Assembly (NCBI GenBank): GCA_045530815.1
Contig: JAZSCU010000024.1
Coordinates: 65-64,064 of the forward strand
DNA: 64,000 nt
Origin: Candidatus Nanosyncoccus sp.
GTDB lineage: Bacteria; Patescibacteriota; Saccharimonadia; Saccharimonadales; Saccharimonadaceae
Direction: 5' to 3'
Shown here: positions 28,801-45,473 of the stretch, piece by piece
Layout: each line of letters opens with the position of its first letter
Position numbering within the stretch: the stretch's first letter is position 1
The notes under the pieces: generated by a model
Database searches by the model: none
Told to the model about the DNA's origin: nothing
The model's input: the letters and a program-made list of their open reading frames with translations, nothing else
Position numbers and translations under genes: made by a program

Positions 28801-28982
28801 TAAAAAACAAATCCCCAAAAAATAAGTGGGTGCCCTTTATGGGTTTTTACATATCGGGCGATGAGCCCCTCTGATGAGCTTTGCATTAAAGTGCTTCAGG
28901 GGTGCGTCCCCCTGTTCACCCGCAGCCTTCACCGTATTATAGACGTGTCACAAAAATATTCAATAAAAAAAGGAGAAAAACT

Positions 28983-29441: not shown

Positions 29442-29927
29442 ATAAGTATCAAAATTAGAAAAGCCACCAAAGATGATATTAAAATAATTCAGCAGTTCGG
29501 TCTTGAGCTCTTGGAGTACGAGCGAAAAGGTTGGGATCCGACCGTAGAAACAGATTGGCCCTTTAGTGAGTCCGGTAGAAAAGCCTACGAAATGGCTATC
29601 GATAAGGGATATGTCACTATCGCTGAAAATGAAGAAAACGGAGAAAAGCAACCAATCGGCTTCCTTATTGGTAGAGTCTCCTATGCCGACAAAAATGCTC
29701 CCCGTGTAATGACTGCCGCCCATATCCATAACATCTTTGTCTACCCCGAGTTTCGCGAGAAAAACGTTGGCAAAAAGCTGTTTGAAAACTTCAAATCACA
29801 CTGCAAAAAAGAAGGTGTCAAAAAACTTAGCATCACTGTCAACAGCAAAAACGACATCGCTATTAAATTTTACGAAAAAACTGATTTTAAACCCTCCTCT
29901 ATTATTTTCTCCCAAAATCTCGAATAA
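29442..29927 (+). CDS. GNAT acetyltransferase, apparent ATA start (or start-codon-mutated pseudogene)
   Basis: Frame extends from the track start to ATA 29442 and matches the N-terminus of paralog 35448-35960; IFVYPEFREKNVGKKLF, AIKFYEK motifs. Confidence 0.8.
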   Translation: MSIKIRKATKDDIKIIQQFGLELLEYERKGWDPTVETDWPFSESGRKAYEMAIDKGYVTIAENEENGEKQPIGFLIGRVSYADKNAPRVMTAAHIHNIFVYPEFREKNVGKKLFENFKSHCKKEGVKKLSITVNSKNDIAIKFYEKTDFKPSSIIFSQNLE

Positions 29928-30019
29928 TTCCCCATTTTAAAACCTTAGTTCCGTACACCAGGGTCACTAAAAAGCCCATTCTCCCTTTAAATATCATCAT
30001 TTTCCTTGCCGCTATCACC

Positions 30020-30238
30020 TTGGCACAATTCACCTTCACTGGCATCGTTAACCTGCCACCGGTACCATATCTTGGCACCTACCTCTCTGCTATCAGCTGT
30101 TTCGCCTTCTTTGGCGCTTATATGACTCTCACCCTGATGCCTCTTCAAAAAATCCCCTTTAAGGATCCTGTTACCGGTCAATACGGCTTTCGCGCTCACC
30201 GGAATTTTTTTAAAGCTCTTAAGAAAAATAAAAAATGA
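30020..30238 (+). CDS. Possible small membrane protein or gene fragment
   Basis: Hydrophobic open frame that extends upstream without an ATG; no SD or promoter seen. Confidence 0.25.
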   Translation: MAQFTFTGIVNLPPVPYLGTYLSAISCFAFFGAYMTLTLMPLQKIPFKDPVTGQYGFRAHRNFFKALKKNKK

Positions 30239-30276
30239 GCATTGACTCCATCTATGATAAATGGTATAATAGTAAA

Positions 30277-30570
30277 ACTAGCTGTCAATTGTAACTTAAA
30301 AACGGTAACTCTTTTTTATCAAAACTAAACCGCCCTAGGCGGAAAACCTTAATTCATCGATGAAATTGAAAAAGTAACAAGAAGTTAAGCACAAAAAAAG
30401 AGATTACTAGCACCGTGGAATTTTCCACAGAGAGAAAGGAAGGAAAAACTGGGAGGAACATTTTAGTTTTTAGACCGTGTAGGTGTTTTATAGGTTTAAC
30501 CTTTCGGAAGTTTATCTAAAATTGTCCCCTTCTTCTCTAGTACATTTATATCCGCTTCGGCGGATTTTTT
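30277..30570 (+). ncRNA. Candidate structured ncRNA (about 290 nt)
   Basis: TGGTATAAT at 30262; long-range stems; ATCCGC-TTCG-GCGGAT terminator + T tract; no ORF. Confidence 0.5.
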
Positions 30571-30776
30571 CATTTTTTATTAAATTTATCCAAATTAAAT
30601 AAGGGCTTTTTGTCGCCGTCAATAATTCCCTGCGCTTTTCGCACCAGCTTTTCGAGCGCCGCCTCAGATGCCGCTGAACCCACGTGCACAGTCTTTACAA
30701 CGTGATTCCCTTCCTTGTAGCACACCTGTACCCCAGTCGCCCCCGAAGTCGTCTTAAATTTCCGAATGTAAGCCAT
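30570..30776 (-). mobile_element. Stand-alone 68-aa ORF resembling the N-terminal domain of IS1634-family transposases
   Basis: MAYIRKFKTTSGATGVQV..VKTVHVGSA.SEAAL resembles the IS1634 N-terminus as recalled (not searched); intact TGATACAAT promoter 6 nt upstream; no DDE domain. Confidence 0.6.
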
Positions 30777-30812
30777 ACCTTAATTGTATCATAACCAAGT
30801 TTGACTTATTCC

Positions 30813-30985
30813 CTAACCCCAAATTTTTATTTGCATTGAGCAAACCCGAGAAAGTTTTTATGGGATTTAGGAAAATTTAACTCGCGAACCGTGAAGACAG
30901 CCGTGAGACGAGCAAATTGTCCGTTAAAAATCCCATAAAAATTTTACCGGCGTGAAGCGAAGCGCAAATAAAAATTAGGGTTTAG
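30813..30985. repeat. Rod-shaped palindromic element (about 173 bp), homolog of 45161-45335
   Basis: Stems AATTTTTATTTGC/GCAAATAAAAATT and TTTTTATGGGATTT/AAATCCCATAAAAA; loop motifs shared with the 45161 copy. Confidence 0.88.
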
Positions 30986-31003
30986 TGATTAACCCAAACA
31001 TGC

Positions 31004-31045
31004 TTATGCACAACAAATCCACAAGCTTTTTCCACAAAAACCACA
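31004..31045 (+). promoter_or_regulatory. Cluster of co-oriented DnaA-box-like 9-mers
   Basis: TTATGCACA 31004, AAATCCACA 31015, TTTTCCACA 31028, AAAACCACA 31037. Confidence 0.4.
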
Positions 31046-31136
31046 AGCAAAATTAGACTAATTCCCTTGTGTCTAGCAACCACCTCGCCTGGCAACCGCA
31101 CTTGACAAACAAAAAAGCTCAAGCTAAAATAAAACC

Positions 31137-31325
31137 AACAACCGAGGCCAAAAACCTCGAGTTGGGAGAAAATTAGCATTCTAAGATTTCTACAAGAAGA
31201 AGTTGCAGGAAATCCTCTAACCCCTGGTAAAGAGCAGGGAAATGCTAAAAAGATTTTGTTAAACCGTCTAAAACATACAGCCGGGAGTTTTTGCATAAGC
31301 AGAAATAAAATAAAATGCTTATGAA
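31137..31325 (+). ncRNA. Candidate structured ncRNA (about 190 nt)
   Basis: TTGACA(31102)-17 bp-TAAAAT(31125); CGAGG/CCTCG, TAGCATT/AATGCTA, CCCTG/CAGGG, CATAAGCA/TGCTTATG stems. Confidence 0.45.
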
Positions 31326-31379
31326 GTCAACTAATTTCACAGCACAACAGGACTAAATACGTATGATATAATTAGTACG

Positions 31380-32378
31380 ATGAATAATCCAATCACACAG
31401 TCCAAATTATGGCAAAAACTCCAGGATGACCTCGGAGAATCTTGCATTTACAGAGAAGGAAAAGACTATCATTTTCTTGCTATAATAATGAAAACACCAG
31501 TGGGGAATTATCTATATTGTCCTTATGGGCCCGTGGCAAAAAGCGAAACTGCATTTAAAGAGGCTCTATCGGAATTAAAAAAACTCGCCAAAGAAAATAG
31601 CGCAATTTTTGTCCGGGTTGAACCAGAGAACCTTGCCTATCAGAATTTACTACCAAAAAATGCCAAAAAATCCAAAGATTTAAACCCTAAAGACACCTGG
31701 GTTTTAGATTTAACACCAGATCGGGCAGAGATTATCACTAATTTTAGCCAGGGAACTAGAACTCGTTTTAATACTTTTAAGAAAAAAGGCCTCGAGGTAG
31801 AAGCAACCAAGGATAAGGACGAGATTAAGCACCTAGTAAAACTCCAAAATCAGCTTTTTAAGGCTAAAAACTTGCATACTTTTAGTGAAAAATACCTCAA
31901 AACAGAGCTAGAGCAACCCTTTGCTACCCTTTATTTAGTAAAATATTACACCCCAGAAGAGACACCGAAAGCATCAGAGAAAAACGCCACAAAAGCTCCG
32001 GCACAATCTCAGCCCACCCCTAATGATGGCCAAATTCTCGCCGCCAGTCTCTTTTTTGATTACGACGACACGCGCTACTATATGCAGTCGGCCGCGGACA
32101 ATACATTTAAAAAACTCCCCGCGACGGTTGCACTTCTGACGACTGCAATTTTTGATGCCAAAGAACAGGGAATCAAAAATTTTGATTTTTGGGGTATCGC
32201 CCCGGATAATGCACCAAAAGATCACCCCTGGGCCGGCTTTACGGAATTTAAAAAATCCTTCGGTGGGGAAGCCAGACACTACCTAGGTACTTATGATTTG
32301 CCTGTCAGCCCGGCCAAATATAAACTCTACCAATCGACTCGTAAATTTGGCAAACTCATCCGCAAAACTCGCGTCTAA
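31380..32378 (+). CDS. FemAB/FemX (MurM)-type peptidoglycan bridge aminoacyltransferase
   Basis: ITQSKLW, YLYCPYGP, FVRVEP, TWVLDL, FSQGTR, FDFWGI, FTEFKKSFGG. Confidence 0.9.
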   Translation: MNNPITQSKLWQKLQDDLGESCIYREGKDYHFLAIIMKTPVGNYLYCPYGPVAKSETAFKEALSELKKLAKENSAIFVRVEPENLAYQNLLPKNAKKSKDLNPKDTWVLDLTPDRAEIITNFSQGTRTRFNTFKKKGLEVEATKDKDEIKHLVKLQNQLFKAKNLHTFSEKYLKTELEQPFATLYLVKYYTPEETPKASEKNATKAPAQSQPTPNDGQILAASLFFDYDDTRYYMQSAADNTFKKLPATVALLTTAIFDAKEQGIKNFDFWGIAPDNAPKDHPWAGFTEFKKSFGGEARHYLGTYDLPVSPAKYKLYQSTRKFGKLIRKTRV

Positions 32379-32428
32379 GCAAAAAAACACACCGCAAAAA
32401 CTCATATCTAAGTAAAAAACCACAAAAA

Positions 32429-32452
32429 AAGACGCTGGAATCCCAGCGTCTT
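32429..32452. terminator. Hairpin between convergent genes
   Basis: AAGACGCTGG..CCAGCGTCTT. Confidence 0.7.
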
Positions 32453-32468
32453 GTGGTGATAGGCTAAA

Positions 32469-33083
32469 CTACCAAATCGCATTAGCGATCTCTCTAGCAT
32501 AGTCCAATTGACTAAGCGGGGTATTACTAATGATCCCCATCCCGCTAAGAAGAATATCTAAATTATCTTCATTAATCAATCGGCTAACCAAATGATTAAC
32601 GTCCTCCATACCTCTAGGGTTCCCCTCATGGTAAAAGGTGGAATATTTGATCTGGAGTGGCTCAAAAATCAGCATAGTCTGAAGCAGCGACGATTTAGTT
32701 AAATTGTCCTTAACTTCAACAGACATTTTTCCTCTTGGAGGTTCAATGGACGCAGCCAAAAATGACCGTGTACAAACTGCACCGTTTTTGCGCAATACCT
32801 CAAGGGTGTTTAAATATGAATGAATATTGTCCATTTCTGCAATGGAAGAAATTTTCAGACTGTATCTTGAAATCAAATCGAGTTTTTGCTCCATCTCGGG
32901 ATCCTCTTCGCCATATTTATGCCAATACATCACAAAATGATCCTTGACCAGCGCGATATTAGTATCTCTGCGCTTTTCTACGGCCCAGGTCTTCCCAAGA
33001 CTGTCTTGAGCCAATACATCCTTAGCCTCCTCGTAGCCTATACCACTAATGTTCAACCTTACTACAAGTTTCTGATCTTTCAT
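32469..33083 (-). CDS. Hypothetical protein (204 aa)
   Basis: AGGGAGGT SD, own promoter-like region, terminator downstream. Confidence 0.7.
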   Translation of the reverse strand: MKDQKLVVRLNISGIGYEEAKDVLAQDSLGKTWAVEKRRDTNIALVKDHFVMYWHKYGEEDPEMEQKLDLISRYSLKISSIAEMDNIHSYLNTLEVLRKNGAVCTRSFLAASIEPPRGKMSVEVKDNLTKSSLLQTMLIFEPLQIKYSTFYHEGNPRGMEDVNHLVSRLINEDNLDILLSGMGIISNTPLSQLDYAREIANAIW

Positions 33084-33184
33084 ATATACCTCCCTATAAG
33101 ATGCAGAACAATAAAGTAACCTCTATAATATTAGCATATTCTCTGGGAATTGCAAGTTAAGGGCCCCTGAGTTATAATCAATCT

Positions 33185-35548
33185 ATGGATTTAAATGGGT
33201 TATCATCAGCTGAGGTTGCCGAAAAAACCCGGCAGGGTAAAGTCAACTACTCTACGGATCAAAAATCAAATTCGATCGGTAAAATCATCCTAAAAAACAC
33301 CTTAACTATTTTTAATTTAGTCAATCTAATTTTGGCGGTGTTAATTCTGATTGTTGGCTCTTATAAAAATCTACTCTTCGTTCTGATCGCTATTGTAAAC
33401 ACACTAATTAGTATTATCAACGAAATTCGCGCCAAGCGCACCATCGACAAAATGCGCCTTATCTCTGAGCAAAAACCCACTGTAATCAGAGGTGGCAAAA
33501 TCCTTCAGATTAACCCAGACCAACTAGTAGAAGGAGATCTGCTGGCTCTTTCTCTGGGCGACCAAATCATCGTGGATTCAAAAATCAAACAGGGGACTAT
33601 AGAGGTCAACGAGTCCTTTATCACTGGTGAGCAAGATAATATTATTAAAAAGCCTGGAGATAATCTAATTTCTGGGAGCTTTATTGTATCGGGTAGTTGC
33701 AAGGCCACTGTTACCGCCGTCGGCAAAGATAACCTCATCAACAAACTAGAATCTTCCGCCCGTACCATCAAAACCGCCGACAGCAAGCTGTTTTCTATCA
33801 TGAACAACATCGTAAAATATATTAGCTTTGCGCTGATTCCTATTGGCGCGCTCCTCCTCTGGGCGCGTTTTCGGGTAGATGGTACCACAACAGAGGTCGC
33901 GGTCACTAGTACTGTTGCCGCCCTTATCAATATGATCCCAGAAGGCCTGATTCTTTTAACTAGTACCGTTCTGGCTCTTGCTACTATCCGTCTTAGCAAA
34001 AAGAAAGTACTTGTACAAGATTTTTATTCAATAGAAACACTCGCTCGTGTTGATACGATATGTCTAGATAAAACCGGCACCTTAACCACGGGCAAAATGT
34101 CTGTCCACGACTTTGTTTTGCCGGACGGTACTGTATTAAACAAACTATCAAAGGCTCCTACCCAGCCAGAAAAATCCTTTCTAAGGACCCTCACGTCCAT
34201 TTTAACAAATCAAACTTCCGAAAATGCAACCATAACCGCTTTGAAACAAAAATTCAAAGAAGGTGCCAAATTTGGCGAAATACAGGATATTACAGAAATA
34301 ATCAGTTTTTCATCCGAACGCAAACATTCCGGCTTCCACACTAAAGATGCCACCTATCTCCTTGGGGCTATAGAGTTTATTACAGAAGATAAAGCATTGA
34401 TAAAAAAGGTAAAATCTGCCTCCGCCGGCTATCGCACCTTAGCGATTGTAAAGAGGAAGGCTATTTCGGCATCATCTGATACATTACTGGGTTTTGTTCG
34501 CCTCGAAGATGAAATTCGCAAAGACGCAAAAGATATTATCAACTATTTTTATGACAACAACATTGACGTCAAAATCATCTCCGGTGATGATTTTGACTCT
34601 GTCACCAAAATTGCCGAGCGAGTCGGTGTAAGAGAATTAAAAGGATTCAATCTTTCCTCCGAAAAATCTCACAATTACGCAAAATTAGCCAAGGAATACA
34701 CTATTTTTACACGGGTTACACCTATAGAAAAGAAATCTATAATTGCTGCACTAAAAAAACAGGGAAAAACTGTTGCCATGACCGGAGATGGAGTCAACGA
34801 TATTCTCGCAATGAAAGAGGCTGACTGCTCTATGGCTATTGGCGAAGGATCTGATGCGGCCCGCCGTGCCTCCAAATTGGTTCTCTTAAATTCCGACTTT
34901 TCCGCCGTCCCGTCAATTATTAATGAAGGCCGCCAATCAATCAATAATCTCGAACGCTCCACTACTCTTTTCCTCTCTAAAACCGTCTATGCCTCTATTC
35001 TCGCCGTTCTCTTTACCATACTCCCATTAGAATATCCTTATGCTCCGATCGAAATGTCATTGCTAAATTTCGCCTGTATTGGCTTCCCCGGGGTCATCTT
35101 AGCCCTTGAGAAGAATACTGCTCGCATTAAGAACCAGTTTGTCAAAAACATCAAAAACTACTCCATCCCCACCGGCATTACCGTTTCTATCGCGATGATT
35201 ATTCTCTCAATTATTGCCGAAATCAACAATTTTACTCGCCCCGAACTTCTCACCGCTTCACTCTTTATCACCTTCGCTATCGACATTGCCTTAATTTATC
35301 AAATCAGCAGACCCCTAAATTTGCTCCGTACCATACTCCTTACTACTATTATCGCAATCGTTATTGGCGCCTTCCTAATTGTTCCAACTCATAATCTTCT
35401 AGATCTCGGCTATCTTCAAGGTAATCCTCTTCTTATTACTCTAATAATTACCGCTTCTGCTCTAGTCCTCTTTGCTCTTCTCCGTCTTTTAATTCACAAG
35501 ACATCATCAAGCGAGAAGGAGAATATCCCATCTTCTCGTAAAATTTAA
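33185..35548 (+). CDS. Cation-transporting P-type ATPase (CtpE-like)
   Basis: NESFITGE, MIPEGL, CLDKTGTLT, FSSERK, KIISGD, MTGDGVND. Confidence 0.93.
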   Translation: MDLNGLSSAEVAEKTRQGKVNYSTDQKSNSIGKIILKNTLTIFNLVNLILAVLILIVGSYKNLLFVLIAIVNTLISIINEIRAKRTIDKMRLISEQKPTVIRGGKILQINPDQLVEGDLLALSLGDQIIVDSKIKQGTIEVNESFITGEQDNIIKKPGDNLISGSFIVSGSCKATVTAVGKDNLINKLESSARTIKTADSKLFSIMNNIVKYISFALIPIGALLLWARFRVDGTTTEVAVTSTVAALINMIPEGLILLTSTVLALATIRLSKKKVLVQDFYSIETLARVDTICLDKTGTLTTGKMSVHDFVLPDGTVLNKLSKAPTQPEKSFLRTLTSILTNQTSENATITALKQKFKEGAKFGEIQDITEIISFSSERKHSGFHTKDATYLLGAIEFITEDKALIKKVKSASAGYRTLAIVKRKAISASSDTLLGFVRLEDEIRKDAKDIINYFYDNNIDVKIISGDDFDSVTKIAERVGVRELKGFNLSSEKSHNYAKLAKEYTIFTRVTPIEKKSIIAALKKQGKTVAMTGDGVNDILAMKEADCSMAIGEGSDAARRASKLVLLNSDFSAVPSIINEGRQSINNLERSTTLFLSKTVYASILAVLFTILPLEYPYAPIEMSLLNFACIGFPGVILALEKNTARIKNQFVKNIKNYSIPTGITVSIAMIILSIIAEINNFTRPELLTASLFITFAIDIALIYQISRPLNLLRTILLTTIIAIVIGAFLIVPTHNLLDLGYLQGNPLLITLIITASALVLFALLRLLIHKTSSSEKENIPSSRKI

Positions 35549-35960
35549 TCGCGGGAATATTTTTGGAATTTACCATTACATCAATTTTTTGGACATTCTC
35601 TTTTTTGCAACGAGCACAAAGCTCCGTAAATAGCTTTTTGCCGATACCACTTCCGCGAAAATCTGGTTTTACATATATATTTTCTAAATATGCCGTCACT
35701 AAATGTCGAGCATCGTTAGGCCCTGGATGCAAAATCTTGCAAATTAAATACCCAATCGGAGTGTCATCTTGCTCGACGATTAGAGAAATTTTTTCGCTAA
35801 TAGCCTTTATGTAGGCTGCTTCACCTTCTTTGCTAAACGACCAGTTGGAATCTAGTGTTTTATCCCAACTCTTTCGTTCATATTCAGAAAGTTCAAAACC
35901 CAACTGTTGTATTGTTTTTAGATCATCAAGTGTAGCTTGTCGGATAGAGATATTGTCCAT
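35448..35960 (-). CDS. GNAT acetyltransferase (paralog of 29442-29927)
   Basis: ISIRQATLDDL, IYVKPDFRGSGIGKKL, NIPAIKFYEKMGY. Confidence 0.88.
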   Translation of the reverse strand: MDNISIRQATLDDLKTIQQLGFELSEYERKSWDKTLDSNWSFSKEGEAAYIKAISEKISLIVEQDDTPIGYLICKILHPGPNDARHLVTAYLENIYVKPDFRGSGIGKKLFTELCARCKKENVQKIDVMVNSKNIPAIKFYEKMGYSPSRLMMSCELKDGEEQRGLEQKR

Positions 35961-36043
35961 AATTGCGAATATTATAACATGGATTTAAATATTTAGGCCA
36001 TCAACCTGGGATCGTATGATATAATTAAAAAAAAGGAGTTTTT

Positions 36044-36559
36044 ATGGCAAAATCACAAGATTTTATTCAAAGAAGTTTAGTAGTATTAAAACCAGACACT
36101 GTCCAGCGAGGTATCATTGGCGAAATAATCCAACGCTTTGAACGTGTTGGCCTTAAAATCGTCGGCATGAAAATGGTTATGCCAGATGAGCATCTTTACC
36201 GCGAACACTACGAGGGTATCGGTCAGATGATTACTCGTCGTGGCGAACAAATTTTCCGCTATAATGTTGAGTACATGATGACTGGTCCGGTGATTGCTAT
36301 GGTACTAGAAGGTGTTGAGGCTGTGCCGCTTGTTCGTAAAATCGTCGGCCCAACCGAACCAAAATCCGCAGAAATGGGTACTATTCGCGGTGACTATTCT
36401 CACATGAGCTTTGGTTACTCCGATGCTAAAGGTACTGGTGTGCCAAACCTTGTCCATGCTTCCTCAAATGCTGAAGAAGCCAAAAAAGAGATCGACCTCT
36501 GGTTTAATGGTAATGAACTTTACGATTACTCCGATCTTAACGAAAAATTCACAAGATAA
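36044..36559 (+). CDS. ndk: Nucleoside diphosphate kinase
   Basis: LVVLKPDTVQRG.IGEII.RFE, GPVIAMV, GTIRGDY, NLVHAS. Confidence 0.96.
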   Translation: MAKSQDFIQRSLVVLKPDTVQRGIIGEIIQRFERVGLKIVGMKMVMPDEHLYREHYEGIGQMITRRGEQIFRYNVEYMMTGPVIAMVLEGVEAVPLVRKIVGPTEPKSAEMGTIRGDYSHMSFGYSDAKGTGVPNLVHASSNAEEAKKEIDLWFNGNELYDYSDLNEKFTR

Positions 36560-36605
36560 AAGCTTTAGTCACAGATTATTCTTGAGTTTATAGTTTATAC
36601 GTAGC

Positions 36606-36634
36606 ATTCAACCCACCCCTAAGGTGGGTTGAAT
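36606..36634 (+). terminator. Intrinsic terminator of ndk
   Basis: ATTCAACCCACC-CCTAA-GGTGGGTTGAAT + T tract. Confidence 0.8.
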
Positions 36635-36705
36635 TTTTATTATTTCTATGCTATAATTTACCGAAATAGGAAGGTGGACTACGCACATTAAAAAGGAGGT
36701 ATTCG

Positions 36706-37797
36706 ATGAAAAGTGTAAAGCAAATCGTAGTCGAACAAACTGACCGTGGTTACGGACATTTACTTGAGGACAAACTCGATGAATGGGCTTGTCATCAGAT
36801 CAAGCTGTCAAGTTCTTATCGCAACGGAAGTTTGGCTCCGGTATCATCTACAACGGATGGCGGCAGCCGAAAACGAGCGATCATGGAACGCGTTAAAATC
36901 ACAATGGCGCATAGCTCCATGTCTGAAAAAGAGGTGGTTTGCCGCCTCATCGAGCTTGAGAGACGCCTGGAAGATCCGGGCCTCTTAGAGAATTTCGAGT
37001 ATTTTGACATTCCGAGCTCGGAATTCATGTTGTCATTCTACTTCACACTGTGGGATGGCAGAATTGCCGAAGTCATGGATTTTCTCCATGATTATGGGAA
37101 AGATCTGAGCGGTGTCGCCCAGCATATTCCCGAAGGAGATGTCTGGCGCAAGATGTCTTACTTCGAGGGCATGAACATCGACAAAAGAAAACAGGCAAGA
37201 GATGTGGTGGAGTTTATGAACTTTCATCATGTCAAAAAAGCCACCTCTTTTGGCGGTGGAAACATTCCCGAAAGATTCTATGGGATGCCCGAGGATCTGG
37301 AGTTGACAGTCTTTGATAATGGCCCTGTGAGCTCACTCCCGGAATTGTTTCCGGACGAGAAGCAGCGGAAAAGGGTGAATTACATTCACGAATTATTATC
37401 CGCGGCTCCCCGTTACCCAGAATTAATTAGTACACAGGAACTGGTATGGATGCACGGCGTCTCTATGTACCTGGATGAAACATCGCTGATTGGCGCAATC
37501 GTCTGCGCTCACGCTCTGCTTCAGCCAGATGGATATATGTGCTATGACTACCTGCTGAACAACCAATCCTTGCAGAGAGCAGTTGTTACACAGGGATGGC
37601 CATATAATCCAGAAAAACCGATGACCATTTTCGAACGGCCTGAGACAGCCATTGAGTATGGCTTAAACATCATTAAAGCCGTCAACAAAAAGCTGGAAGG
37701 AAGATCCTTCATGGATGTAGTTGATGTCAAAGTCAATATTCTGGATCCATGGGGACCAACCAGTGTGTATTTTATACTGCAAAAACACGGAGAATAG
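36706..37797 (+). CDS. Hypothetical protein with a possible degenerate class I SAM-methyltransferase fold
   Basis: ATSFGGG, LTVFD, WMHGVSMYL, LLQPDGYMCYD spaced like class I MTase motifs; AAGGAGGT SD. Confidence 0.45.
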   Translation: MKSVKQIVVEQTDRGYGHLLEDKLDEWACHQIKLSSSYRNGSLAPVSSTTDGGSRKRAIMERVKITMAHSSMSEKEVVCRLIELERRLEDPGLLENFEYFDIPSSEFMLSFYFTLWDGRIAEVMDFLHDYGKDLSGVAQHIPEGDVWRKMSYFEGMNIDKRKQARDVVEFMNFHHVKKATSFGGGNIPERFYGMPEDLELTVFDNGPVSSLPELFPDEKQRKRVNYIHELLSAAPRYPELISTQELVWMHGVSMYLDETSLIGAIVCAHALLQPDGYMCYDYLLNNQSLQRAVVTQGWPYNPEKPMTIFERPETAIEYGLNIIKAVNKKLEGRSFMDVVDVKVNILDPWGPTSVYFILQKHGE

Positions 37798-37809
37798 TCC
37801 GCCTCCTAA

Positions 37810-37841
37810 AAAATCCCGTACCAAACCAGGTACGGGATTTT
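37810..37841. terminator. Bidirectional terminator
   Basis: AAAATCCCGTACC..GGTACGGGATTTT between convergent genes. Confidence 0.82.
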
Positions 37842-37857
37842 ACTGTCAAGAAGAGAA

Positions 37858-39219
37858 TTATAGCAAGTGCTTCTTGATCTGGTGATCGCCAGGGCTCGTT
37901 ACCGCCGGTACTACTTGCATTACTATTTCTACCGGGACCAAATCACGTTCATCCAAACTGAAGTGTCCTCTAGATTTGCCGAATAATACTTTGCCCACTA
38001 TCTTACCTTTACTATCGCGTAGTTCTGCTACTGCTGCGATATCTAGGTTTTTGAGTTTTTTCATTAATTCGTCATCTGGCTCTAGCCAAATCCCGCCACT
38101 GGTTTTCTTTAGCCCTTCAACTTTTTTAATTATCTCAGGTGAGATTTTTAATTTTCTAGAACCATAGACCTCGCCGTTTATTACAAAACCAATATATTGG
38201 AAATGTAAATGATCTCGCAAAAAGTCTGCGAGCTCTAAGAGATTCACGTTGTTGCCTACTAATTTAGTTAATTTTTTTACGATATACGCTACGTCTACCT
38301 CATCAGTTGAAGCTAAAGACCCCACAAAGGTACTTAATTCGTTTAAAGCAGGGAAGAGCAACATCACTGCTGCAATCATTAAGAGATTTAGCAAAATTAC
38401 CTGAGTAGAAGGGGTAGGTACTCTAAATAGTGCCGCAAATATTGCGAAGAATATCACAAGGTATACAATCGCCGCAAGCGACATTATAATTATTTTTGAA
38501 AAACCTCTTAGCCACGGGCTGCATAGGTCAAGCAGTCTATACCTTAGAATTGCGTAATAATGGAAAATCCAAGCAATTGACATGGCAATTACTCCAACCC
38601 AAATGGTGCTATATTTGCCAAAATAAGGTAAAATAAAGTTAAAGACTAATGCTAAAACTCCAGTGATTGAAAAACCAATTAACACCATCCAGTTAGCTCT
38701 TCGTATACTCGCGGTCTTACCCTTGCGAGCAGTATATGCTAAACCTATCATATAGAGAATTACTGCTAAGAAATGATATGCCCCGTATAAAATATAAAAC
38801 ATATCATGACGTACGTGTACGACATTACCGCTGGCTTCATTTAGCTCATAACCGCTATAGAGCAAGTCCGGATTTACTAGAATTAATGTTACGAATATTG
38901 CACAGACTAATCCTAGTATTCCCATACCGATTTTACCTGGTAAATATTTATGACAAGTATATGCCATCAGCCCCCAACACATCACTGGTGCTCCGATATA
39001 GAACATATCGATTGACATGGATGCCCATTTATCTCCAGTGGATTCTGGAAGAGATAAGAAAATTCCCACACCAACTGCCCAGGCCAGCGCCGCTAGGGTT
39101 GTCAAGAAAAACAAAAATGCTTGCAGTCTGTCGCCTTTGTGGGCCCCCGATACCACCGCTACACCTGAAAGCGCGGTTAATATTGCGACAATAATGAGTA
39201 ATAATGTTGTTAGTTGCAC
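37858..39219 (-). CDS. Polytopic membrane protein, HisKA-7TM-like sensor region without a kinase domain
   Basis: About 9 hydrophobic segments, YAILRYRLLD motif, soluble C-terminus with no H-box or G-box; GTG start. Confidence 0.65.
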   Translation of the reverse strand: MQLTTLLLIIVAILTALSGVAVVSGAHKGDRLQAFLFFLTTLAALAWAVGVGIFLSLPESTGDKWASMSIDMFYIGAPVMCWGLMAYTCHKYLPGKIGMGILGLVCAIFVTLILVNPDLLYSGYELNEASGNVVHVRHDMFYILYGAYHFLAVILYMIGLAYTARKGKTASIRRANWMVLIGFSITGVLALVFNFILPYFGKYSTIWVGVIAMSIAWIFHYYAILRYRLLDLCSPWLRGFSKIIIMSLAAIVYLVIFFAIFAALFRVPTPSTQVILLNLLMIAAVMLLFPALNELSTFVGSLASTDEVDVAYIVKKLTKLVGNNVNLLELADFLRDHLHFQYIGFVINGEVYGSRKLKISPEIIKKVEGLKKTSGGIWLEPDDELMKKLKNLDIAAVAELRDSKGKIVGKVLFGKSRGHFSLDERDLVPVEIVMQVVPAVTSPGDHQIKKHLL

Positions 39220-39271
39220 GTTTGCCTCCTTGTTAATTAAAGTTTATCACGTGGTTTACTCAAAATCAATG

Positions 39272-40231
39272 TTAAAAGTTAGAGAAATATTGTGACCAGT
39301 GCGTCTTGTGCTGCGAATCCAGATCAAAATAAAAACCTACTGCTAGTTTTGTGAAATCTGGATTCAAAATATTTTCTCGATGTTTTTCTGAATTCATCCA
39401 TGCCGCCACTGTTGTCTCCGGTGATACTGCAGAATTTCCTACCACCAGATTTTCGCCCTCTAAAGATACCGCATTGCCGTTAGGATTGTCGCAGGCTGTA
39501 CTCCAAGGTGTACCATCTGGACGCGTATGTGAATACAAAGTCACCAGCTCTTCTGCTCGGATTTCTGCCGCATCTGTACAAGTATCTCCCCAGGTCAACT
39601 TTGACAAACCATTACGAACCCTTTCTTGGTTTACTAAAGATAAAATCTCATACTCCCATTTAATTTTTGGCACCTTTTCTACTACTACTTCTATCGAATC
39701 GCGCCTTGTACCATCATAAGTACCTGCCGTAATTGTAGTGGTCCCTACACCTGAAATAATCGGGAACCTACAGGTATCATCTGAATAACCCAACCAAGTA
39801 CGAGCACCAGAGAAAAATCCAGAGATCACATCAGTATTACTGGTCTGCCAATACATTTCACCCAAATTAGATAGCCCACCACCTACACAAATATCGTAAT
39901 CTGCTGATTCGTAAATCGTAACTACATCCTCAGCCCATAATTCACCTGCTGGCACTGGCGCCGAATCTACCCCTGTTGAAGTGTGTACTGATGTCCTATA
40001 CTCTTTTTGTGCATCAGTTAAACTTGCGCTAGAATTACTTTCTGCGCCAATTAGCTCTGGGGTCTCCACTGCGCCACCGTCATCATCACTTCGTTCATCT
40101 ACTACCTTGAATTCCATCCCCCCGTTAAAGAAAATTGCACCAGCTACTAGTACGCCGGCCACTAAAATAGCCACCGCATTTAACGATAATAAAATTGTTA
40201 TTTTTGTTTGTCTAAAAGCCGCCGCCGTCAT
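39272..40231 (-). CDS. Membrane-anchored CAP (SCP/PR-1) domain protein with Ig-like domain
   Basis: LSLVNQER..GLSKL, SHTRPDG, GENLVVG, AWMNSEKHRENIL. Confidence 0.85.
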   Translation of the reverse strand: MTAAAFRQTKITILLSLNAVAILVAGVLVAGAIFFNGGMEFKVVDERSDDDGGAVETPELIGAESNSSASLTDAQKEYRTSVHTSTGVDSAPVPAGELWAEDVVTIYESADYDICVGGGLSNLGEMYWQTSNTDVISGFFSGARTWLGYSDDTCRFPIISGVGTTTITAGTYDGTRRDSIEVVVEKVPKIKWEYEILSLVNQERVRNGLSKLTWGDTCTDAAEIRAEELVTLYSHTRPDGTPWSTACDNPNGNAVSLEGENLVVGNSAVSPETTVAAWMNSEKHRENILNPDFTKLAVGFYFDLDSQHKTHWSQYFSNF

Positions 40232-40283
40232 TAATTACCTTCACTTAATGCTTATTTATATCATTATATGGCAACTTTATGCT

Positions 40284-41453
40284 CTAGTCAATCTCCACCC
40301 TTGGATAGATATTAAGAGAATATGGATCCGTTGGCTCTACCCCAGATTTTATTTCAAAGAAAGCTGCCGCCGCCACCATCGCACCATTGTCTCCAGATAA
40401 TTTTAGCTCAGGAAAGTATACTTTTACATTTTTATTAAATTTTTCTATCATTTTCTTTCGCAACTCTTTGTTAGCGCTTACTCCTCCTGCTACTACAATT
40501 GACTTAGTATCAGGGTATTTTTCTAGTGCTAACTTCATTTTTTCGCACAAAATCTCTATCGCGGTTTTTTGGAATGAAGCCGCAAAATCACAAACTTGCT
40601 TCTTTGATAGTAATTCTTTTAGCTGATGGGAAGGATAAGAAATTGGCACCCCCACCTCTTTTTGCACTGCTCGAAGCACCGCTGTTTTTAGTCCCGAAAA
40701 CGAAAAATCTAGCCCTGGGATTTTTGGGTGCGGGAGCCGATACATATTTGCGTCACCAGAGAGATCATAGTTGCCACTAGCTGCAGCTGCAATCGATGGT
40801 CCTCCCGGATACGGCAATCCTAGAATTTTTGCTACTTTGTCAAAACACTCCCCCACCGCATCATCCCTTGTCGTCCCCACAATCTTAAACTGGTTATGTG
40901 CCGGCATATAAAGTATTTGGGTATGCCCACCCGAAACTACCAGTGCCAAAATCGGAAATTTCGGACTACAATTATTCATGTCCAGCTCGAGGGGATTCGG
41001 AGTCTGGCAAGGCGAGGACGGGCGTCGATCGCCCATGCCGATGGGTCGACCGGACGCGGCTCGAGAGTGAGCATGAATATTGTCTCCGGCTAACCAGTTT
41101 GCATAAACATGTGATTTAAGATGATGCACCGCATAAAGAGGCTTATTGTATAAAATTGCCAAAGTTCTCGCCGTCAAAGTACCAATTAAAAGGGAACCAA
41201 GAAGCCCCGGTGCATGCGTCACCGCAATTGCATCAATATCGTTCCACGAACAGCTAGCATCCTCTAGGGCCTTTTTTACGACGGGCATCATCACCTCTAG
41301 GTGGCTTCTCGCTGCCACCTCTGGTATTACCCCACCATATTCTGCAAAAATATCAATTTGCGACACCACAACATTAGACAAAATTTTTACTCCATCCTCT
41401 ACTACCGAGGCGGCCGTCTCGTCACAACTAGTCTCAATCCCCAATATTTTCAT
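40284..41453 (-). CDS. tsaD: tRNA N6-threonylcarbamoyltransferase TsaD with a palindrome-encoded insertion of about 42 aa
   Basis: ILGIETSCDET, GGVIPEVAARSH, HHLKSH, VSGGHT, DDAVGECFDKVA..LGLPYPGGP, FSFSGLKT, GDNGAMVA. Confidence 0.96.
   Translation of the reverse strand: MKILGIETSCDETAASVVEDGVKILSNVVVSQIDIFAEYGGVIPEVAARSHLEVMMPVVKKALEDASCSWNDIDAIAVTHAPGLLGSLLIGTLTARTLAILYNKPLYAVHHLKSHVYANWLAGDNIHAHSRAASGRPIGMGDRRPSSPCQTPNPLELDMNNCSPKFPILALVVSGGHTQILYMPAHNQFKIVGTTRDDAVGECFDKVAKILGLPYPGGPSIAAAASGNYDLSGDANMYRLPHPKIPGLDFSFSGLKTAVLRAVQKEVGVPISYPSHQLKELLSKKQVCDFAASFQKTAIEILCEKMKLALEKYPDTKSIVVAGGVSANKELRKKMIEKFNKNVKVYFPELKLSGDNGAMVAAAAFFEIKSGVEPTDPYSLNIYPRVEID
40962..41088. repeat. Palindromic element (about 126 bp) inserted in frame in tsaD
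   Basis: Arms CGGACTACAATTATTCATG / CATGAATATTGTCTCCG; inner CTCGAG..CTCGAG and CCCAT/ATGGG; core resembles the valS element. Confidence 0.82.
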
Positions 41454-41500
41454 CTCTTAATTATACCACAAGTAACTAAAAACGTATATTTAAACAGGGG

Positions 41501-41563
41501 AAATATATCACCAGATGAATATTAGAATATAAACATTACTACAAATATATCACCAGGTGAATA
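41501..41563. promoter_or_regulatory. Pair of 21-bp operator-like direct repeats upstream of tsaD
   Basis: AAATATATCACCAG(A/G)TGAATA at 41501 and 41543; core TCACC-A-GGTGA dyad. Confidence 0.55.
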
Positions 41564-41570
41564 AATTTTG

Positions 41571-42002
41571 TTATACGTGATGATATTTTCCACCTCTCGC
41601 TATCTCTTGTGCTCGGTAAGTTTGTTCCATAACTATCATTCTAGCCATCATATGAGGAAATACCAGACGCGAAAAACCCCATATAAAGTTCGCTTTTTCT
41701 CGCACCTCGGCTGGAAATCCATATGCTCCGCCAATTAATATCACTACTTCCAAACCTTGTTCCATTGCCTCAGTAATTTTTGACGAATATTCGTCCGATG
41801 ATATATTATTACCCCGTTCGTCACAACAAATCACATATTCCCGCCCCGTAAATGGCCATTTTTCTAATTTTTGGATTAGTTTATCTTCCTCAACAAATTC
41901 CCACTTCACCTCATATGGTTTCCTTAGTCGCTTTTCATACTCTGCGATAATTTCACTCACCGCCCCCTGATTTTTCTTTCCCCCGGCAATTATTCTAATC
42001 AT
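41571..42002 (-). CDS. rlmH: 23S rRNA (pseudouridine1915-N3)-methyltransferase
   Basis: EYEKRL, DERG, LIGGAYG, LVFPHMMAR..MEQTYRA..I..G.KYH. Confidence 0.95.
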   Translation of the reverse strand: MIRIIAGGKKNQGAVSEIIAEYEKRLRKPYEVKWEFVEEDKLIQKLEKWPFTGREYVICCDERGNNISSDEYSSKITEAMEQGLEVVILIGGAYGFPAEVREKANFIWGFSRLVFPHMMARMIVMEQTYRAQEIARGGKYHHV

Positions 42003-42230
42003 ATATTATCCTTATAAGACATTTGTTCGAACAATATTTTACTTCACTTCAATCTATTTTGCAATTAATTTTAGATAAAACAAAAAAATATGAAAAAAAT
42101 GTGGTATATTACGAGGCTAACCAATTGGATATAAGCTATATTAATATATAAAAACGAGAAACAAAGATATCAAATACTTATCCAAGAAAAGTCATTGGGA
42201 CAGGTTGCGATAAAAAAATAAAGATAGGTC

Positions 42231-42450
42231 ATACATAAAAAAACAAAAAGTTTTTTAAGCAAAACTCTTACAAGTTTTAAAAATATAAGACTTCTGATCT
42301 TTTTGTTGCTAATTGTAGTAGCAACCTCTGTTCTTAATTTTGATTCACCAGTATCCGCAAAAAATAGTACTCCTACCCTTGAACTTAGGAGTAGCAGCAT
42401 GTCGGTAAATATCACCCCAAATCTTTCTTCTGGGGTTTTAATAAATCTAC
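42231..42450 (+). pseudogene. 5' remnant of a secreted or surface protein gene
   Basis: Open frame IHKKTKSF..IRLLIFLLLIVVATSVLNFDSPVSAKNSTPTLEL looks like a signal peptide; no ATG; runs into the tRNA-linked element at 42451. Confidence 0.4.
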
Positions 42451-42686
42451 AAGCAAAAGTCTTCCGTCCTCCTTGCTCGAAATATCATGAGCAAACTCCC
42501 TATATTCTCTCGTTTCGTCGTCCGGTCGAACCTACGGTTCTCATCCTACCAGTTTTTATTATAGAAAATACCCGAACAAATGCTCGGGTATTTTCTATGG
42601 CTAGGCTGGCAGGATGACGGCTTCGCTTCGCTACGCCTAGACCTCGCTTCGCTCGGTGCGAACCTACGGTTCTCATCCTACCAGCT
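42451..42686 (-). repeat. tRNA-Gln-linked repeat array (two structured units + hairpin)
   Basis: 18-bp copy of the tRNA 3' end TGGCTAGGCTGGCAGGAT at 42598; 26-bp direct repeat CGAACCTACGGTTCTCATCCTACCAG at 42527 and 42659. Confidence 0.88.
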
Positions 42687-42691
42687 TAAGT

Positions 42692-42739
42692 ATATGAATT
42701 AAAATAAGACTCCTTCGGAGTCTTCTTCTAATTCATATG
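42692..42739 (-). terminator. Hairpin directly after tRNA-Gln
   Basis: ATATGAATT..AAGACTCC-TTCG-GAGTCTT..AATTCATAT. Confidence 0.7.
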
Positions 42740-42812
42740 GCTAGGCTGGCAGGATTCGAACCTGCGAATGACGGGACCAAAACCCGTTGCCTTACCACTT
42801 GGCGACAGCCTA
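42738..42812 (-). tRNA. tRNA-Gln(TTG)
   Basis: TAGGCTG/CAGCCTA acceptor, ACGGG-TTTTGGT-CCCGT, TTCGAAT, GCCA. Confidence 0.96.
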
Positions 42813-42894
42813 ACGTAATTCTGATTATACCACATAAAACCAAAAATCCAAAATCACTATACCTTGTCTTAAGAGGCTAAACTCTTTTAGCTAA

Positions 42895-45099
42895 TTACAC
42901 TAGACTATCAAATTCTTCCATAGAAGAAATCAAAAGTTCACGCGGTTTATTACCATTTTGTGGTCCAATCACCCCAATTTCCTCAAGCCACACCGCAAGA
43001 CCAGATACAAAACCGTGGCCTTTACCAAGATAAGTCTGAAGCATGGCAGTAGAGAATTTACCCTTATTCAGAGAAATTTCCACAGCTTTTCTTACAACTG
43101 GATCATTTGGATCATAGCGACGTCCAAGATCCCCGATGCTTCCACCACCAGAAGGCCCCATACCCTTGATTGCTACAGCCTGTGCAGTAACCTCATTATT
43201 GTATTCAGGTGGACGTTGTGCTCGCAAGAAATCAGTAACCTTATTGATATCCTCATCAGATGCCCAAGCACCCTGAATTCGACGCGGTTTCCCCATCATC
43301 TCGGTAGTCAGAAGAAGCATATCACCTTTACCAAGCAACTTTTCTGCCCCGCCCTGGTCAAGCATGATTTGCGAATCTATACGAGAGCCCACAGCAAAAG
43401 CGATTCTCCCCGGAATGTTTGCCTTAATCAAACCAGTAATCACCTTTACCTCTGGACGCTGAGTCGCGAGCACCAAGTGAATACCTGCGGCACGACCTTT
43501 TTGCGCAATTCTCACAATCAGCATTTCTAGGTCTTTGCCGGCCATCATCATAAGATCAGCCATCTCATCAATCACAATAACGATATAAGGCATTTTACCT
43601 TCTTTTTCAGGAGCTTTTTCAGCAGATTTGGCCATTTTTGCGTTATAATCAGCGATATTTTTGACCTTTTCTTCTGCCATCAGCGTATAACGTCTTTCCA
43701 TCTCGCCTACCGCCCATTTCATCGCCGAAAGCGCCTTTTCTGTAGAGGTAATAATTGGAGCCAGAAGATGCGGTATATCTTGATATTGCGCCATTTCAAC
43801 CTGCTTAGGATCGACAATAATCAACTTCATATCCGATGGAGCATTGCGATAAAGCAGGGAACTAATCAGGGTATTTGTCATCACTGACTTACCAGAACCA
43901 GTAGTACCAGCAATCAAAAGGTGGGGCATTTTAGCAAGATTAGTTACTACAGATCGGCCGGAAATATCTTTGCCTACTGCAAAAGTTAAAGGATCGGCAG
44001 CTTTCTTCCATTCATTACTCTCAAGTACACCTCTAAGCCTTACGTCGGCAGATTTAGAGTTTGGAATTTCTACCCCGACCGATCTAGTTCCAGGAATTGG
44101 CGCCTCAATCCTAATCTTATCAACAGCAAGATTTAAAGCTAATTCCTTATCCCGGGCCAAAATTTTAGAAAGATTTACCCCGGCCGGTGGACGCATCGTG
44201 TACTGAGTTACGCGTGGCCCCACATTTGCCCCCTCCATCTCTACTTCTATACCAAATTCCGCCAAAGTGGATTTAATAATATAGGCATTCTGTTGGATAT
44301 TACCCGCATCTGCAGGGGACTGTTTTTTCTCCAAAAGGTCAGTACTAGGCATTTTCCAGTCAGGATCGTCCATTGCTACTAATGCAGTTGGCTCCTTAGG
44401 CGCTTCTGGTGCGGGAGCTTTGGTTGGAACTTTATGCAAAAGTCGCCCAGCGGATTTTACAGGGGCAGCCTCAGCTGCTGCTACACCGGCATTGACTTTA
44501 ATCTCGAGCTGTCCAGGTTTTCGCGCTTTTTTGACCCCATCATCTGCTTCATCGGCGGCCTTTTTGCTGGGCTTAACCAGATTTTTAGTGCCTTTAAATA
44601 GGGTAATAGGGGAAATTTGTAGTAAGAATGCTAGAGTAATAAAAATCAAAACAATATAAATAATAATTACAAACCCTTGATCTAGAGCCTTAGTCATAAT
44701 ACTGTTTAGCCAATTACCAACAATCCCACCGTTACCCCAAATTGCACCAACACCAGTAAGCCAAAACAACATAATAAGACTCGCTAGGTAAACAGGAAAT
44801 GCCACTCTGTTGTCTTCTGCGCGAAAGATTTTTATTGCTAAATAGACTAGGAGTGGAGGAATAAAATAAGTTGCTACCCCTAGGCCTTTTGCAATTGTCT
44901 GATGGATAATATTAAGTACGGAACCACCATGTCCAAACCAAGTAATCACAAAAAACAATGCAAGAGCAATCATCAGGACTGCCATAATCTGTCGCCAAAA
45001 CCCACCAGGCAATTCGTGTTCTGGCCTTACCTCCTTACTAGAGCTTCTTGTTGAGCGTTTTTTAGTTTTTTTTGAAGTTTTACGTTTTTTCGTTGCCAT
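42895..45099 (-). CDS. ftsK: DNA translocase FtsK/SpoIIIE
   Basis: N-terminal TMs, GPRVTQY, IRIEAPIPG, PHLLIAGTTGSGKSV, IDEMADLMM, ATQRP, gamma domain; start at ATG 45099 after TGGTACAAT. Confidence 0.96.
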   Translation of the reverse strand: MATKKRKTSKKTKKRSTRSSSKEVRPEHELPGGFWRQIMAVLMIALALFFVITWFGHGGSVLNIIHQTIAKGLGVATYFIPPLLVYLAIKIFRAEDNRVAFPVYLASLIMLFWLTGVGAIWGNGGIVGNWLNSIMTKALDQGFVIIIYIVLIFITLAFLLQISPITLFKGTKNLVKPSKKAADEADDGVKKARKPGQLEIKVNAGVAAAEAAPVKSAGRLLHKVPTKAPAPEAPKEPTALVAMDDPDWKMPSTDLLEKKQSPADAGNIQQNAYIIKSTLAEFGIEVEMEGANVGPRVTQYTMRPPAGVNLSKILARDKELALNLAVDKIRIEAPIPGTRSVGVEIPNSKSADVRLRGVLESNEWKKAADPLTFAVGKDISGRSVVTNLAKMPHLLIAGTTGSGKSVMTNTLISSLLYRNAPSDMKLIIVDPKQVEMAQYQDIPHLLAPIITSTEKALSAMKWAVGEMERRYTLMAEEKVKNIADYNAKMAKSAEKAPEKEGKMPYIVIVIDEMADLMMMAGKDLEMLIVRIAQKGRAAGIHLVLATQRPEVKVITGLIKANIPGRIAFAVGSRIDSQIMLDQGGAEKLLGKGDMLLLTTEMMGKPRRIQGAWASDEDINKVTDFLRAQRPPEYNNEVTAQAVAIKGMGPSGGGSIGDLGRRYDPNDPVVRKAVEISLNKGKFSTAMLQTYLGKGHGFVSGLAVWLEEIGVIGPQNGNKPRELLISSMEEFDSLV

Positions 45100-45160
45100 T
45101 ATATCTTTATTGTACCACATTCTAAAGAGAACCACAAGCACGATGCGAAGTGGCTAATTT

Positions 45161-45335
45161 TCTGAACTCTGCTATTTATTTACATTGAGCGAGCCCGAGA
45201 AGATTTTTCTAAATTTTAGGAAATTAGCTCGTGCGAACCGCATAGGCAGACGTGAGACACGAGTAATTTCCGTTAAAAAATTTAGAAAAATCCTTCTCGG
45301 CGCGAAACGAAGCGCAAATAAATAGTAGAGTTAGA
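45161..45335. repeat. Rod-shaped palindromic element (about 175 bp), homolog of 30813-30985
   Basis: Stems AACTCTGCTATTTATTT/AAATAAATAGTAGAGTT and GATTTTTCTAAATTTT/AAAATTTAGAAAAATC. Confidence 0.88.
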
Positions 45336-45404
45336 GATTTAAACACTATGAGTCATATTGATTATTTCTCTGTTATGTGCTACAATAAAAACATAATATC
45401 AGCT

Positions 45405-45470
45405 CAGCAGGTGTGTCAACCCACTCGCGATGAGAAACGGAGAACAGCACTTGCTTTAACCAAAGGAGTT
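45405..45470 (+). promoter_or_regulatory. Structured rpsF 5' leader (possible S6:S18-type autoregulatory RNA)
   Basis: AGCAGGTG..CACTTGCT stem ending just before the AAGGAG SD; TGCTACAAT promoter upstream; position matches known rpsF leaders. Confidence 0.4.
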
Positions 45471-45473
45471 TCT

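Follow-up and report, generated by a model that had tools for sequence, protein, structure and literature searches.

A dispersed family of palindromic rods in Saccharibacteria with a conserved internal core and freely covarying stems

Two rod-like palindromes, which we call A and B, stand in a 64,000-nucleotide stretch of a Candidatus Nanosyncoccus sp. contig (JAZSCU010000024.1; this whole stretch is referred to below as the window). The question that they raise is why two elements whose stems differ in sequence should both stay paired and should keep the same unpaired words in the same order. A first-pass annotation had answered with selection on a single-stranded RNA or DNA structure whose internal loops are recognised by protein, and had set both rods between divergent promoters. 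The part of this answer that concerns selection for pairing in one strand stood up in our analysis; however, A and B are not a local promoter-associated pair but members of a dispersed, insertion-polymorphic family that includes in-frame variants. [quoted passage not shown] Our reasoning for this is that (i) rods are present or absent at orthologous sites; (ii) they stand in unrelated contexts and (iii) stop-free variants lie in frame within essential genes. Mobility as the mechanism, a protein that recognises the element and an RNA or single-stranded DNA intermediate are what we infer from this pattern. The copies in the window and their neighbours are:

30806-30992, + strand: copy A, a complete rod of type 1, defined by pairing, fold and a covariance-model match (30812-30986, 182 bits)
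30570-30776, - strand, and 31380-32378, + strand: neighbours of copy A, a 68-aa open reading frame (ORF) and a FemAB-family gene
45155-45341, + strand: copy B, a complete rod of type 1; covariance-model match at 166 bits
42895-45141, - strand: ftsK, which flanks copy B on one side, the rpsF-ssb-rpsR operon being on the other
1394-1553, + strand: copy C, the third in the window, diverged and degenerate in its core (CATTTAAAACTGCCCGATAA / GCGGCGCAAGTTTTAGCG); model match at 57 bits (E 1e-12)
39-1400, + strand, and 1547-2005, - strand: a LytR-family gene and jag/khpB, convergent genes whose spacer is filled by copy C

Copies at orthologous sites, in unrelated contexts and in frame

The ftsK(-)/rpsF(+) arrangement that surrounds B is also found in a close relative, L146, where S6 is 93% identical and the intergenic spacer is 123 bp. 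Alignment showed that L146 is without approximately 195 nt matching 45146-45340, which is the whole of rod B including its closing stem, and that the rpsF promoter and leader to the right are conserved. Copy C is likewise absent from the jag/LytR spacer of two other close relatives, L151 and L153 (Jag 92-93% identical), and none of the eight rpsF neighbourhoods L138-L145 has a copy. B is flanked by ATTT on both sides and the empty site of L146 is without ATTT, the junction being uncertain by about 4 nt. In sheep-gut contigs B is present with four substitutions, two of which are towards the family consensus, and variant copies abound. The location between divergent promoters agrees with our consensus scans but is incidental, since L146 has this rpsF promoter and leader too and yet no element.

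The family was delimited in two ways. A scan of a genome collection with the 16-nt bubble word alone (the bubble being the conserved core described below) gave 120 matches, mostly chance occurrences in GC-rich genomes, and among them six genuine loci, all in Saccharibacteria and each a rod with the same core and very different stems; in the window the bubble word occurs exactly twice, against 0.14 occurrences expected. A covariance model (R1) was built from seven of the rods. Outside the window it matched three copies in 3.2 kb of L015, as well as L039, L044, L070, L074 and L113, and the copies that it newly found were C in the window, two more in L015 and one more in L113. The family now numbers 11 copies from 7 assemblies, that is, A, B and C plus eight copies in six other Saccharibacteria assemblies. 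R1 gave no match in 707 kb of unrelated loci carrying the 16-nt word by chance, and nothing beyond A, B and C when run over the whole window with filters off. A metagenome scan with a two-part pattern returned two matches, both due to chance, and a viral-contig scan returned 15 chance matches and no rods. A search of a library of papers found none tying such elements to Saccharibacteria or the Candidate Phyla Radiation (CPR).

The contexts in which copies are found elsewhere are unrelated (between thyA-folA and glyA; upstream of recG; at the convergent ends of MgsA/ABC and of ORF/M16 pairs), and the proteins that flank elements in the window have no homologue in the six Saccharibacteria loci with copies. 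There is a bias in position, in that 8 of 10 intergenic copies start approximately -32 to +20 nt from the point where an upstream ORF of the same orientation has its stop codon. C does so behind LytR, L015a behind obg, L039 on the stop of MgsA and L044/L074/L113a on that of folA; L070 and L113b complete the set. The bias may reflect sites where the element is tolerated or a secondary role at 3' ends. It could also be read to mean that the rods act chiefly in cis, as RNA modules placed at gene 3' ends (convergent-gene transcription barriers, 3' stabilisers or processing sites) and that an element has been domesticated, a scenario with which the five copies in convergent spacers and the different hairpin that relatives have in the spacer of C would be consistent. 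We consider this rather unlikely, as A and B are not downstream of a co-oriented gene but between divergent promoter-like sites, no T-run follows either of them, copies inside ORFs cannot be terminators and the positional bias may merely mark where insertions are tolerated.

The evidence for in-frame variants comes from L015, also Candidatus Nanosyncoccus, where type-2 copies lie inside trmD and obg in the sense orientation, in the same frame and free of stop codons. The insert reads VDFANIEQTREKSEEASRDEYETGISAQSRLVDEDFSRSAAKREQN in TrmD, and the Obg peptide is 73% identical. A solved TrmD structure (3ky7) aligns to residues 3-101 and 161-266 with the insert between, a position which we take to be directly before the strand that enters the S-adenosylmethionine (AdoMet) loop. 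In Obg the insert is located between the G domain and the C-terminal domain, the GTPase-domain alignment to solved ObgE ending at residue 372 and the Pfam C-terminal domain starting from 443. Between the trmD and obg copies the hairpin is kept, with 8 double compensations. In type-1 rods each of the six frames is interrupted by stop codons, and all five such rods are intergenic; that stop-bearing rods are always intergenic and in-ORF copies stop-free is what would be expected if the in-ORF copies were translated and not removed. Translation of these copies should give hydrophilic inserts some 55 aa in length.

Further observations concern the sites of A, B and C in their own right. In both the window and L146, ftsK is inverted relative to rpsF; in L138-L145 (eight Saccharibacteria loci) ftsK(+) is directly before rpsF(+), and copy B lies at one edge of the ftsK inversion. 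The rpsF 5' leader (45397-45473) has a 31-nt block, TAATATCAGCTCAGCAGGTGTGTCAACCCAC, that is identical in L146 within a diverged spacer; it is probably an autoregulatory S6:S18 leader, and it had no Rfam match at gathering score. At the position of C in the jag/LytR convergent spacer, L151 (10466-10598) and L153 (966-1032) have a different conserved hairpin of approximately 70 nt with the apex GGCCGAACGGCC. Directly left of A, at a synteny break relative to relatives, 28000-30800 contains small ORFs without a Pfam or NCBIfam match. In sequencing run X21 one contig seemingly has about 79 other letters replacing 30780-31025 at the site of A, although this was deduced from contig arithmetic and is not solid. 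In run X15 the contig word depth is about 110 over the type-1 apical domain (30872-30959), against about 16 on the flanks, and there are many short variant contigs; this depth fits a repeat common to many copies or strains in the sample or, should the run be RNA, a high abundance of RNA. The window organism is present in sheep and bovine gut runs (ruminant gut), the S6 and Jag homologues of the window are labelled 'Candidatus Saccharibacteria', and the window spans the jag-yidC-rnpA / dnaA-dnaN-recF origin region.

Pairing, strand choice and the conserved core

Both rods lie where the first-pass annotation had placed them, with pairing that reaches slightly past the ends given there, to 30806-30992 and 45155-45341. 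The seven words said to be conserved, CATTGAGC, CCCGAGAA, TAGGAAA, GCGAACCG, GTGAGAC, CCGTTAAAAA and CGAAGCGCAAATAAA, indeed occur in the same order in A and B, and the stem words that had been quoted are present and complementary within each copy. The fold of A has a predicted energy of -60.5 kcal/mol (z = -9.0) and that of B -68.2 kcal/mol (z = -8.9), and in neither case was any of 200 dinucleotide shuffles as good. When B was laid on the fold of A, 47 pairs were identical, 5 were kept via a one-sided change, 11 were kept via a double change and 3 were broken. The idea that the stems have been replaced and yet stay paired is therefore borne out by 11 double compensations, but not for the inner closing stem TTTATTT/AAATAAA, which is common to both rods. 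The parts of A and B referred to below are:

30834-30852, + strand: copy A, 5' strand of the core (the bubble), CATTGAGCAAACCCGAGAA
30945-30964, + strand: copy A, 3' strand of the core, ACCGGCGTGAAGCGAAGCGC
45183-45201, + strand: copy B, 5' strand of the core, CATTGAGCGAGCCCGAGAA
45296-45315, + strand: copy B, 3' strand of the core, CTCGGCGCGAAACGAAGCGC
30866-30930, + strand: copy A, type-1 apical domain, TTTAGGAAA ... GCGAACCG ... GTGAGAC ... CCGTTAAAAAT
45214-45280, + strand: copy B, type-1 apical domain, near-identical to the apical domain of L015a (from a Nanosyncoccus assembly)

Copies are 158-190 nt long and have a common architecture in which a variable closing stem of 20-25 bp is followed by a conserved irregular helix, a variable inner stem and an apical domain that is conserved per subtype. 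Subtypes have the same core and different apical domains:

Type 1: A, B, L044, L074 and L015a
Type 2: L015b and L015c
Type 3: L039 and L070
A subtype of its own: copy C, alone (fold of -72.8 kcal/mol, z -11.1)

Across genera it is the unpaired or irregular words that are best conserved, and the 5' strand of the bubble is invariant or nearly so in 9 of 10 copies. In the core consensus, 5' CATTGAGCnnnCCCGAGAA pairs with 3' CCCGGnGnnnAGCGAAsCGC; as modelled, the core consists of U.G and U-A pairs, a tandem G.A/A.G, G-C and C-G pairs, a 2x3 loop and the helix ACCCG/CGG-GU, in which there is one bulge as well as an A x C mismatch. Conservation of the core between genera is approximately 90%, while the closing stems are saturated yet paired. 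The extreme ends have only a loose consensus, AAAWCTnnAAY...RTTnnAGWTTT, and the whole element is an inverted repeat.

Pairing is maintained well beyond A and B. In an alignment of ten copies 91% of cells are standard pairs, as compared to 70% with the 3' partners shuffled and 37-53% with the partners slid by 1-3 columns; 37 of the 50 pairs have changed on both sides, and none of 500 shuffles reached any of the pairing measures. Fitting this alignment to the model biases it towards structure; even so, the margins are wide, and in an independent MAFFT alignment both-side changes were still seen in 31 of 50 pairs. A lack of covariation in further copies, which the first-pass annotation had named as the outcome that would speak against its inference, is thus the reverse of what was found.

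With regard to which strand folds, folding energy alone cannot pick one since the minus strands of A and B are equally stable (z -8.5 and -9.2). Raw G.U counts in the minimum-energy folds of both strands were also misleading, because the core contributes differently per strand, and were replaced by counts outside the core. Outside the core there are 22 G.U pairs and 5 A.C single mismatches on the + strand, with approximately three of the five A.C mismatches belonging to the core in copies where the core mask failed. A palindrome of duplex DNA without single-strand constraint should give G.U and A.C equally, so these counts point to the + strand as the folding strand, and RNA and single-stranded DNA would fit alike. 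The single G.T pair from which a preference for the plus strand had originally been argued is weak evidence by itself, but the preference is upheld by these family-wide counts. Selection on a single-stranded structure is in this way backed both by covariation and by a + strand on which G.U is tolerated and A.C avoided.

Much of this would also be expected if the rods were free-standing structured non-coding RNA (ncRNA) genes, such as a decoy for RNA polymerase resembling 6S or some other RNA that binds protein, occurring as several paralogous copies. A rod of about 175 nt with a conserved irregular internal region between two helices and a z of about -9, strong covariation, tolerance of G.U on the + strand and conservation of the core and type-1 apical domain between genera are all in keeping with an ncRNA, as is the tandem G.A/A.G motif of the core, a motif typical of protein-binding RNA helices. 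However, no Rfam family, 6S included, was matched by any copy: at gathering score, and again when the E-value limit was relaxed (up to 10 for A and B in 241-nt searches, up to 0.01 for the other copies), the searches gave only tRNAs and noise. Close relatives are without copies at syntenic sites, and three copies lie in 3.2 kb of L015, two of them in frame inside ORFs. In addition, promoter and terminator consensus scans detected neither a + strand promoter-like site upstream of A or B nor a T-tract or terminator-like site downstream; the promoter-like sites of FemAB, rpsF and ftsK are all outside the rods, on their outer sides. Given the outer position of these sites, A and B are probably outside the neighbouring transcription units, and an RNA role of these two specifically is accordingly no more than putative. 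Taken together, we regard ncRNA genes as quite unlikely.

A proposed model for mobility and the evidence that opposes it

The model that we prefer, a non-autonomous mobile element, may be set out as follows. The + strand would fold on itself as a single-stranded nucleic acid, and a trans-acting protein would read the conserved core and the apical domain. Stems would need only to pair and, as a consequence, would covary. Selection would retain copies where they do little harm, namely between divergent promoters (A and B), at stop codons, in convergent spacers (C and most others) and in tolerant protein loops.

A number of points weigh against this model. The type-2 insert peptide had no match when searched against 5.8 billion proteins and, on account of this empty search, only a single assembly is known to have the type-2 variant in frame. 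At the copies we recognised neither a target-site duplication nor a flanking direct repeat that was consistent. Pfam scans of approximately 49 of the 64 ORFs of the window revealed no transposase, the sole recombinase among the scanned ORFs being an XerD-like tyrosine recombinase (58629-59567). The termini have only a loose consensus, and in ordinary MITEs the termini are the best-conserved part. A core that is about 90% conserved, together with stems that are saturated and paired, suits a functional RNA no less well than it does a selfish element, and each empty site could be a deletion rather than an insertion. Finally, only 11 copies from 7 assemblies stand behind the family, which is known here from DNA sequence.

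The same XerD-like recombinase is relevant to the possibility that the rods are single-stranded-DNA recombination or initiation sites recognised by shape (integron attC-like sites, Xer-dependent hairpins or sites of primosome assembly). Shape recognition would explain why extrahelical parts are conserved and stems are free, and the strand-specific pairing with G.T tolerated, the stems that conserve pairing and not sequence, and several ends that read nAAC...GTTn are all as such sites would have them. The recombinase itself, however, scores 122 bits against the integron-integrase model TIGR02249 (cut-off 265) and has its best fit with XerD/XerC. The copies form no cassette arrays and are not uniformly oriented, those of L015 being on both strands within 3 kb; orientation tracks the host gene and not one replichore; and the rods are longer than attC, with an inner core, not the ends, conserved in sequence. 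Identity with attC was set aside because neither an integron integrase nor cassette arrays were seen, Xer-type sites seem unlikely, and we hold this class of explanation as a whole to be highly improbable.

Returning to mobility, a bolder version is that the family is a self-propagating structured single-stranded DNA or RNA element, spreading through Saccharibacteria with no recognisable transposase and mobilised by a housekeeping enzyme, either the XerD-like recombinase or the competence/recombination machinery, that reads the irregular helix. Saccharibacteria are naturally transformable. We think of this version as unlikely, if worth keeping in mind; if it were true, a by-product would be new segments of 40-55 aa in the essential proteins TrmD (beside the knot), Obg and ValRS, which would amount to protein innovation in minimal genomes.

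The segment in ValRS comes from what is a second hairpin-repeat family with the same architecture as the main one. The valS gene of the window (20431-23148) has an in-frame hairpin of approximately 120 nt at 22250-22372 (+ strand, z -5.35), which adds about 39 aa (…SSEFENSATRGLPEVTTEDEGASPVTRGAGDPSRESTISNS…) relative to the Thermus thermophilus ValRS (1gax) and can be aligned with a further hairpin that L015 obg carries in frame (aa 98-146). Among 1.84 billion representatives the valS insert peptide matches four unrelated gene calls, including P0244 of L155, a call running into a TatD gene, and P0246, a class I synthetase fragment. The GC-rich core in L155 is close to that of the window valS hairpin, as judged by eye only, and its closing stem is unrelated. 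A link between the two families by circular permutation was suggested by swapped CCCGAGAA / CCGGAG words; these are near-identical words and the link was not relied on.

Other features of the window are also of note. TsaD (40284-41453, - strand) is 389 aa long as compared to 343-379 aa in relatives, and around aa 116-160 it has some 40 additional GC-rich residues; the hairpin of this extra segment is not significant (z -1.0) and the segment may be a decayed insert. Both tRNA-Tyr (11336-11422, + strand) and tRNA-Gln (42668-42762, - strand) are followed by a palindrome with arms of 42-46 nt, of which one arm consists of the 3' end of the tRNA plus a common word, GAATTAAAATnAGACyCC, and the other repeats it in inverted and slightly diverged form; the predicted energies of the two folds are as low as -80 and -74 kcal/mol. 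A RhuM/Fic-domain protein (15718-16764, - strand) adjoins a cluster of three tRNAs (16791-17253).

As to what the main family adds, it is new within a kind of element that is already known, and is unusual in its conserved internal core, its free stems and its having both coding and non-coding subtypes. To our knowledge such elements have not been described before in this phylum. The genomes of Saccharibacteria, as of other CPR bacteria, are tiny and generally considered poor in mobile DNA. We also know of no treatment of the 'coding palindrome' phenomenon other than as a Rickettsia peculiarity, and the family would carry it to a second lineage of obligate symbionts. Recognising the family would in addition aid annotation, as it accounts for odd protein insertions and chimeric gene calls in metagenome-assembled genomes (P0244, through a copy of the sister family, is an example), and the sharply conserved core offers a concrete bait for the recognising protein.

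Comparison with known systems

The likeness to 6S RNA is one of shape only, both having a similar length and a rod with a closing stem, an irregular internal region and a long terminal stem. 6S RNA is a conserved gene, with one or two per genome, outside ORFs. Our copies, in contrast, are multi-copy, not syntenic (they are absent at syntenic sites) and also found inside ORFs, and their 'bubble' is largely pairable and near the base. Identity with 6S RNA (RF00013 and relatives) was rejected on the Rfam searches described above.

With attC sites the rods share hairpins that are read in one strand and the conservation of pairing and extrahelical features rather than stem sequence. In attC the R''/R' core sites RYYYAAC / GTTRRRY are at the base of a hairpin of 57-141 nt. 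Some rod ends read TCTnAAC...GTTnAGA, but these are 20-25 bp from the conserved core, in rods of 160-190 nt; the copies are isolated, are not accompanied by an integron integrase or cassette arrays, and are longer rods with a conserved internal block in place of R boxes at the ends.

In classical MITEs the terminal inverted repeats are well conserved and there are target-site duplications. In our family the termini are the least conserved part, no duplication was found and no parent insertion sequence (IS) was seen: scans of roughly 49 of the 64 ORFs in the window turned up neither a related autonomous IS nor a transposase. In other respects the copies behave as MITEs do: they are short (158-190 nt, well under 500 bp) and carry no transposase gene; they are dispersed in unrelated contexts, the 64-kb window and a 3.2-kb part of L015 having three each; and they are present or absent at orthologous sites, B being absent from L146 and C from L151 and L153. 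There is precedent for rod-like folds in the bacterial MITEs Correia/NEMIS, ERIC, bcr1 and QMITE, whose transcripts fold into rods (PMC10969869). Being small, multi-copy, AT-rich, intergenic, without a coded transposase, present or absent between strains and capable of very stable stem-loops are properties that our family has in common with them (PMC10969869).

The RPEs, the nearest precedent in the literature for palindromic repeats that lie in frame, are dispersed and occupy intergenic regions as well as unrelated housekeeping genes, in which they encode a conserved peptide (PMC10969869). Both they and the present family are long-hairpin repeats of approximately 100-190 bp that occur intergenically and in frame with a conserved peptide, and no transposase is known for either (PMC10969869). 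In-frame insertion is seen here for the family (L015 trmD and obg) but not for A, B and C, all of which are intergenic. The differences are that (i) our copies are from Saccharibacteria and the RPEs from Alphaproteobacteria; (ii) window copies A and B, which are of type 1, have stops in every frame and are strictly intergenic, the in-frame copies coming from one assembly only and (iii) our family is defined by a sequence-conserved, irregular internal helix flanked by freely covarying stems. Homology is unlikely because the phylum differs, and we would accordingly describe the family, going by these likenesses, as a probable analogue and not a member of the series RPE-1 to RPE-10.

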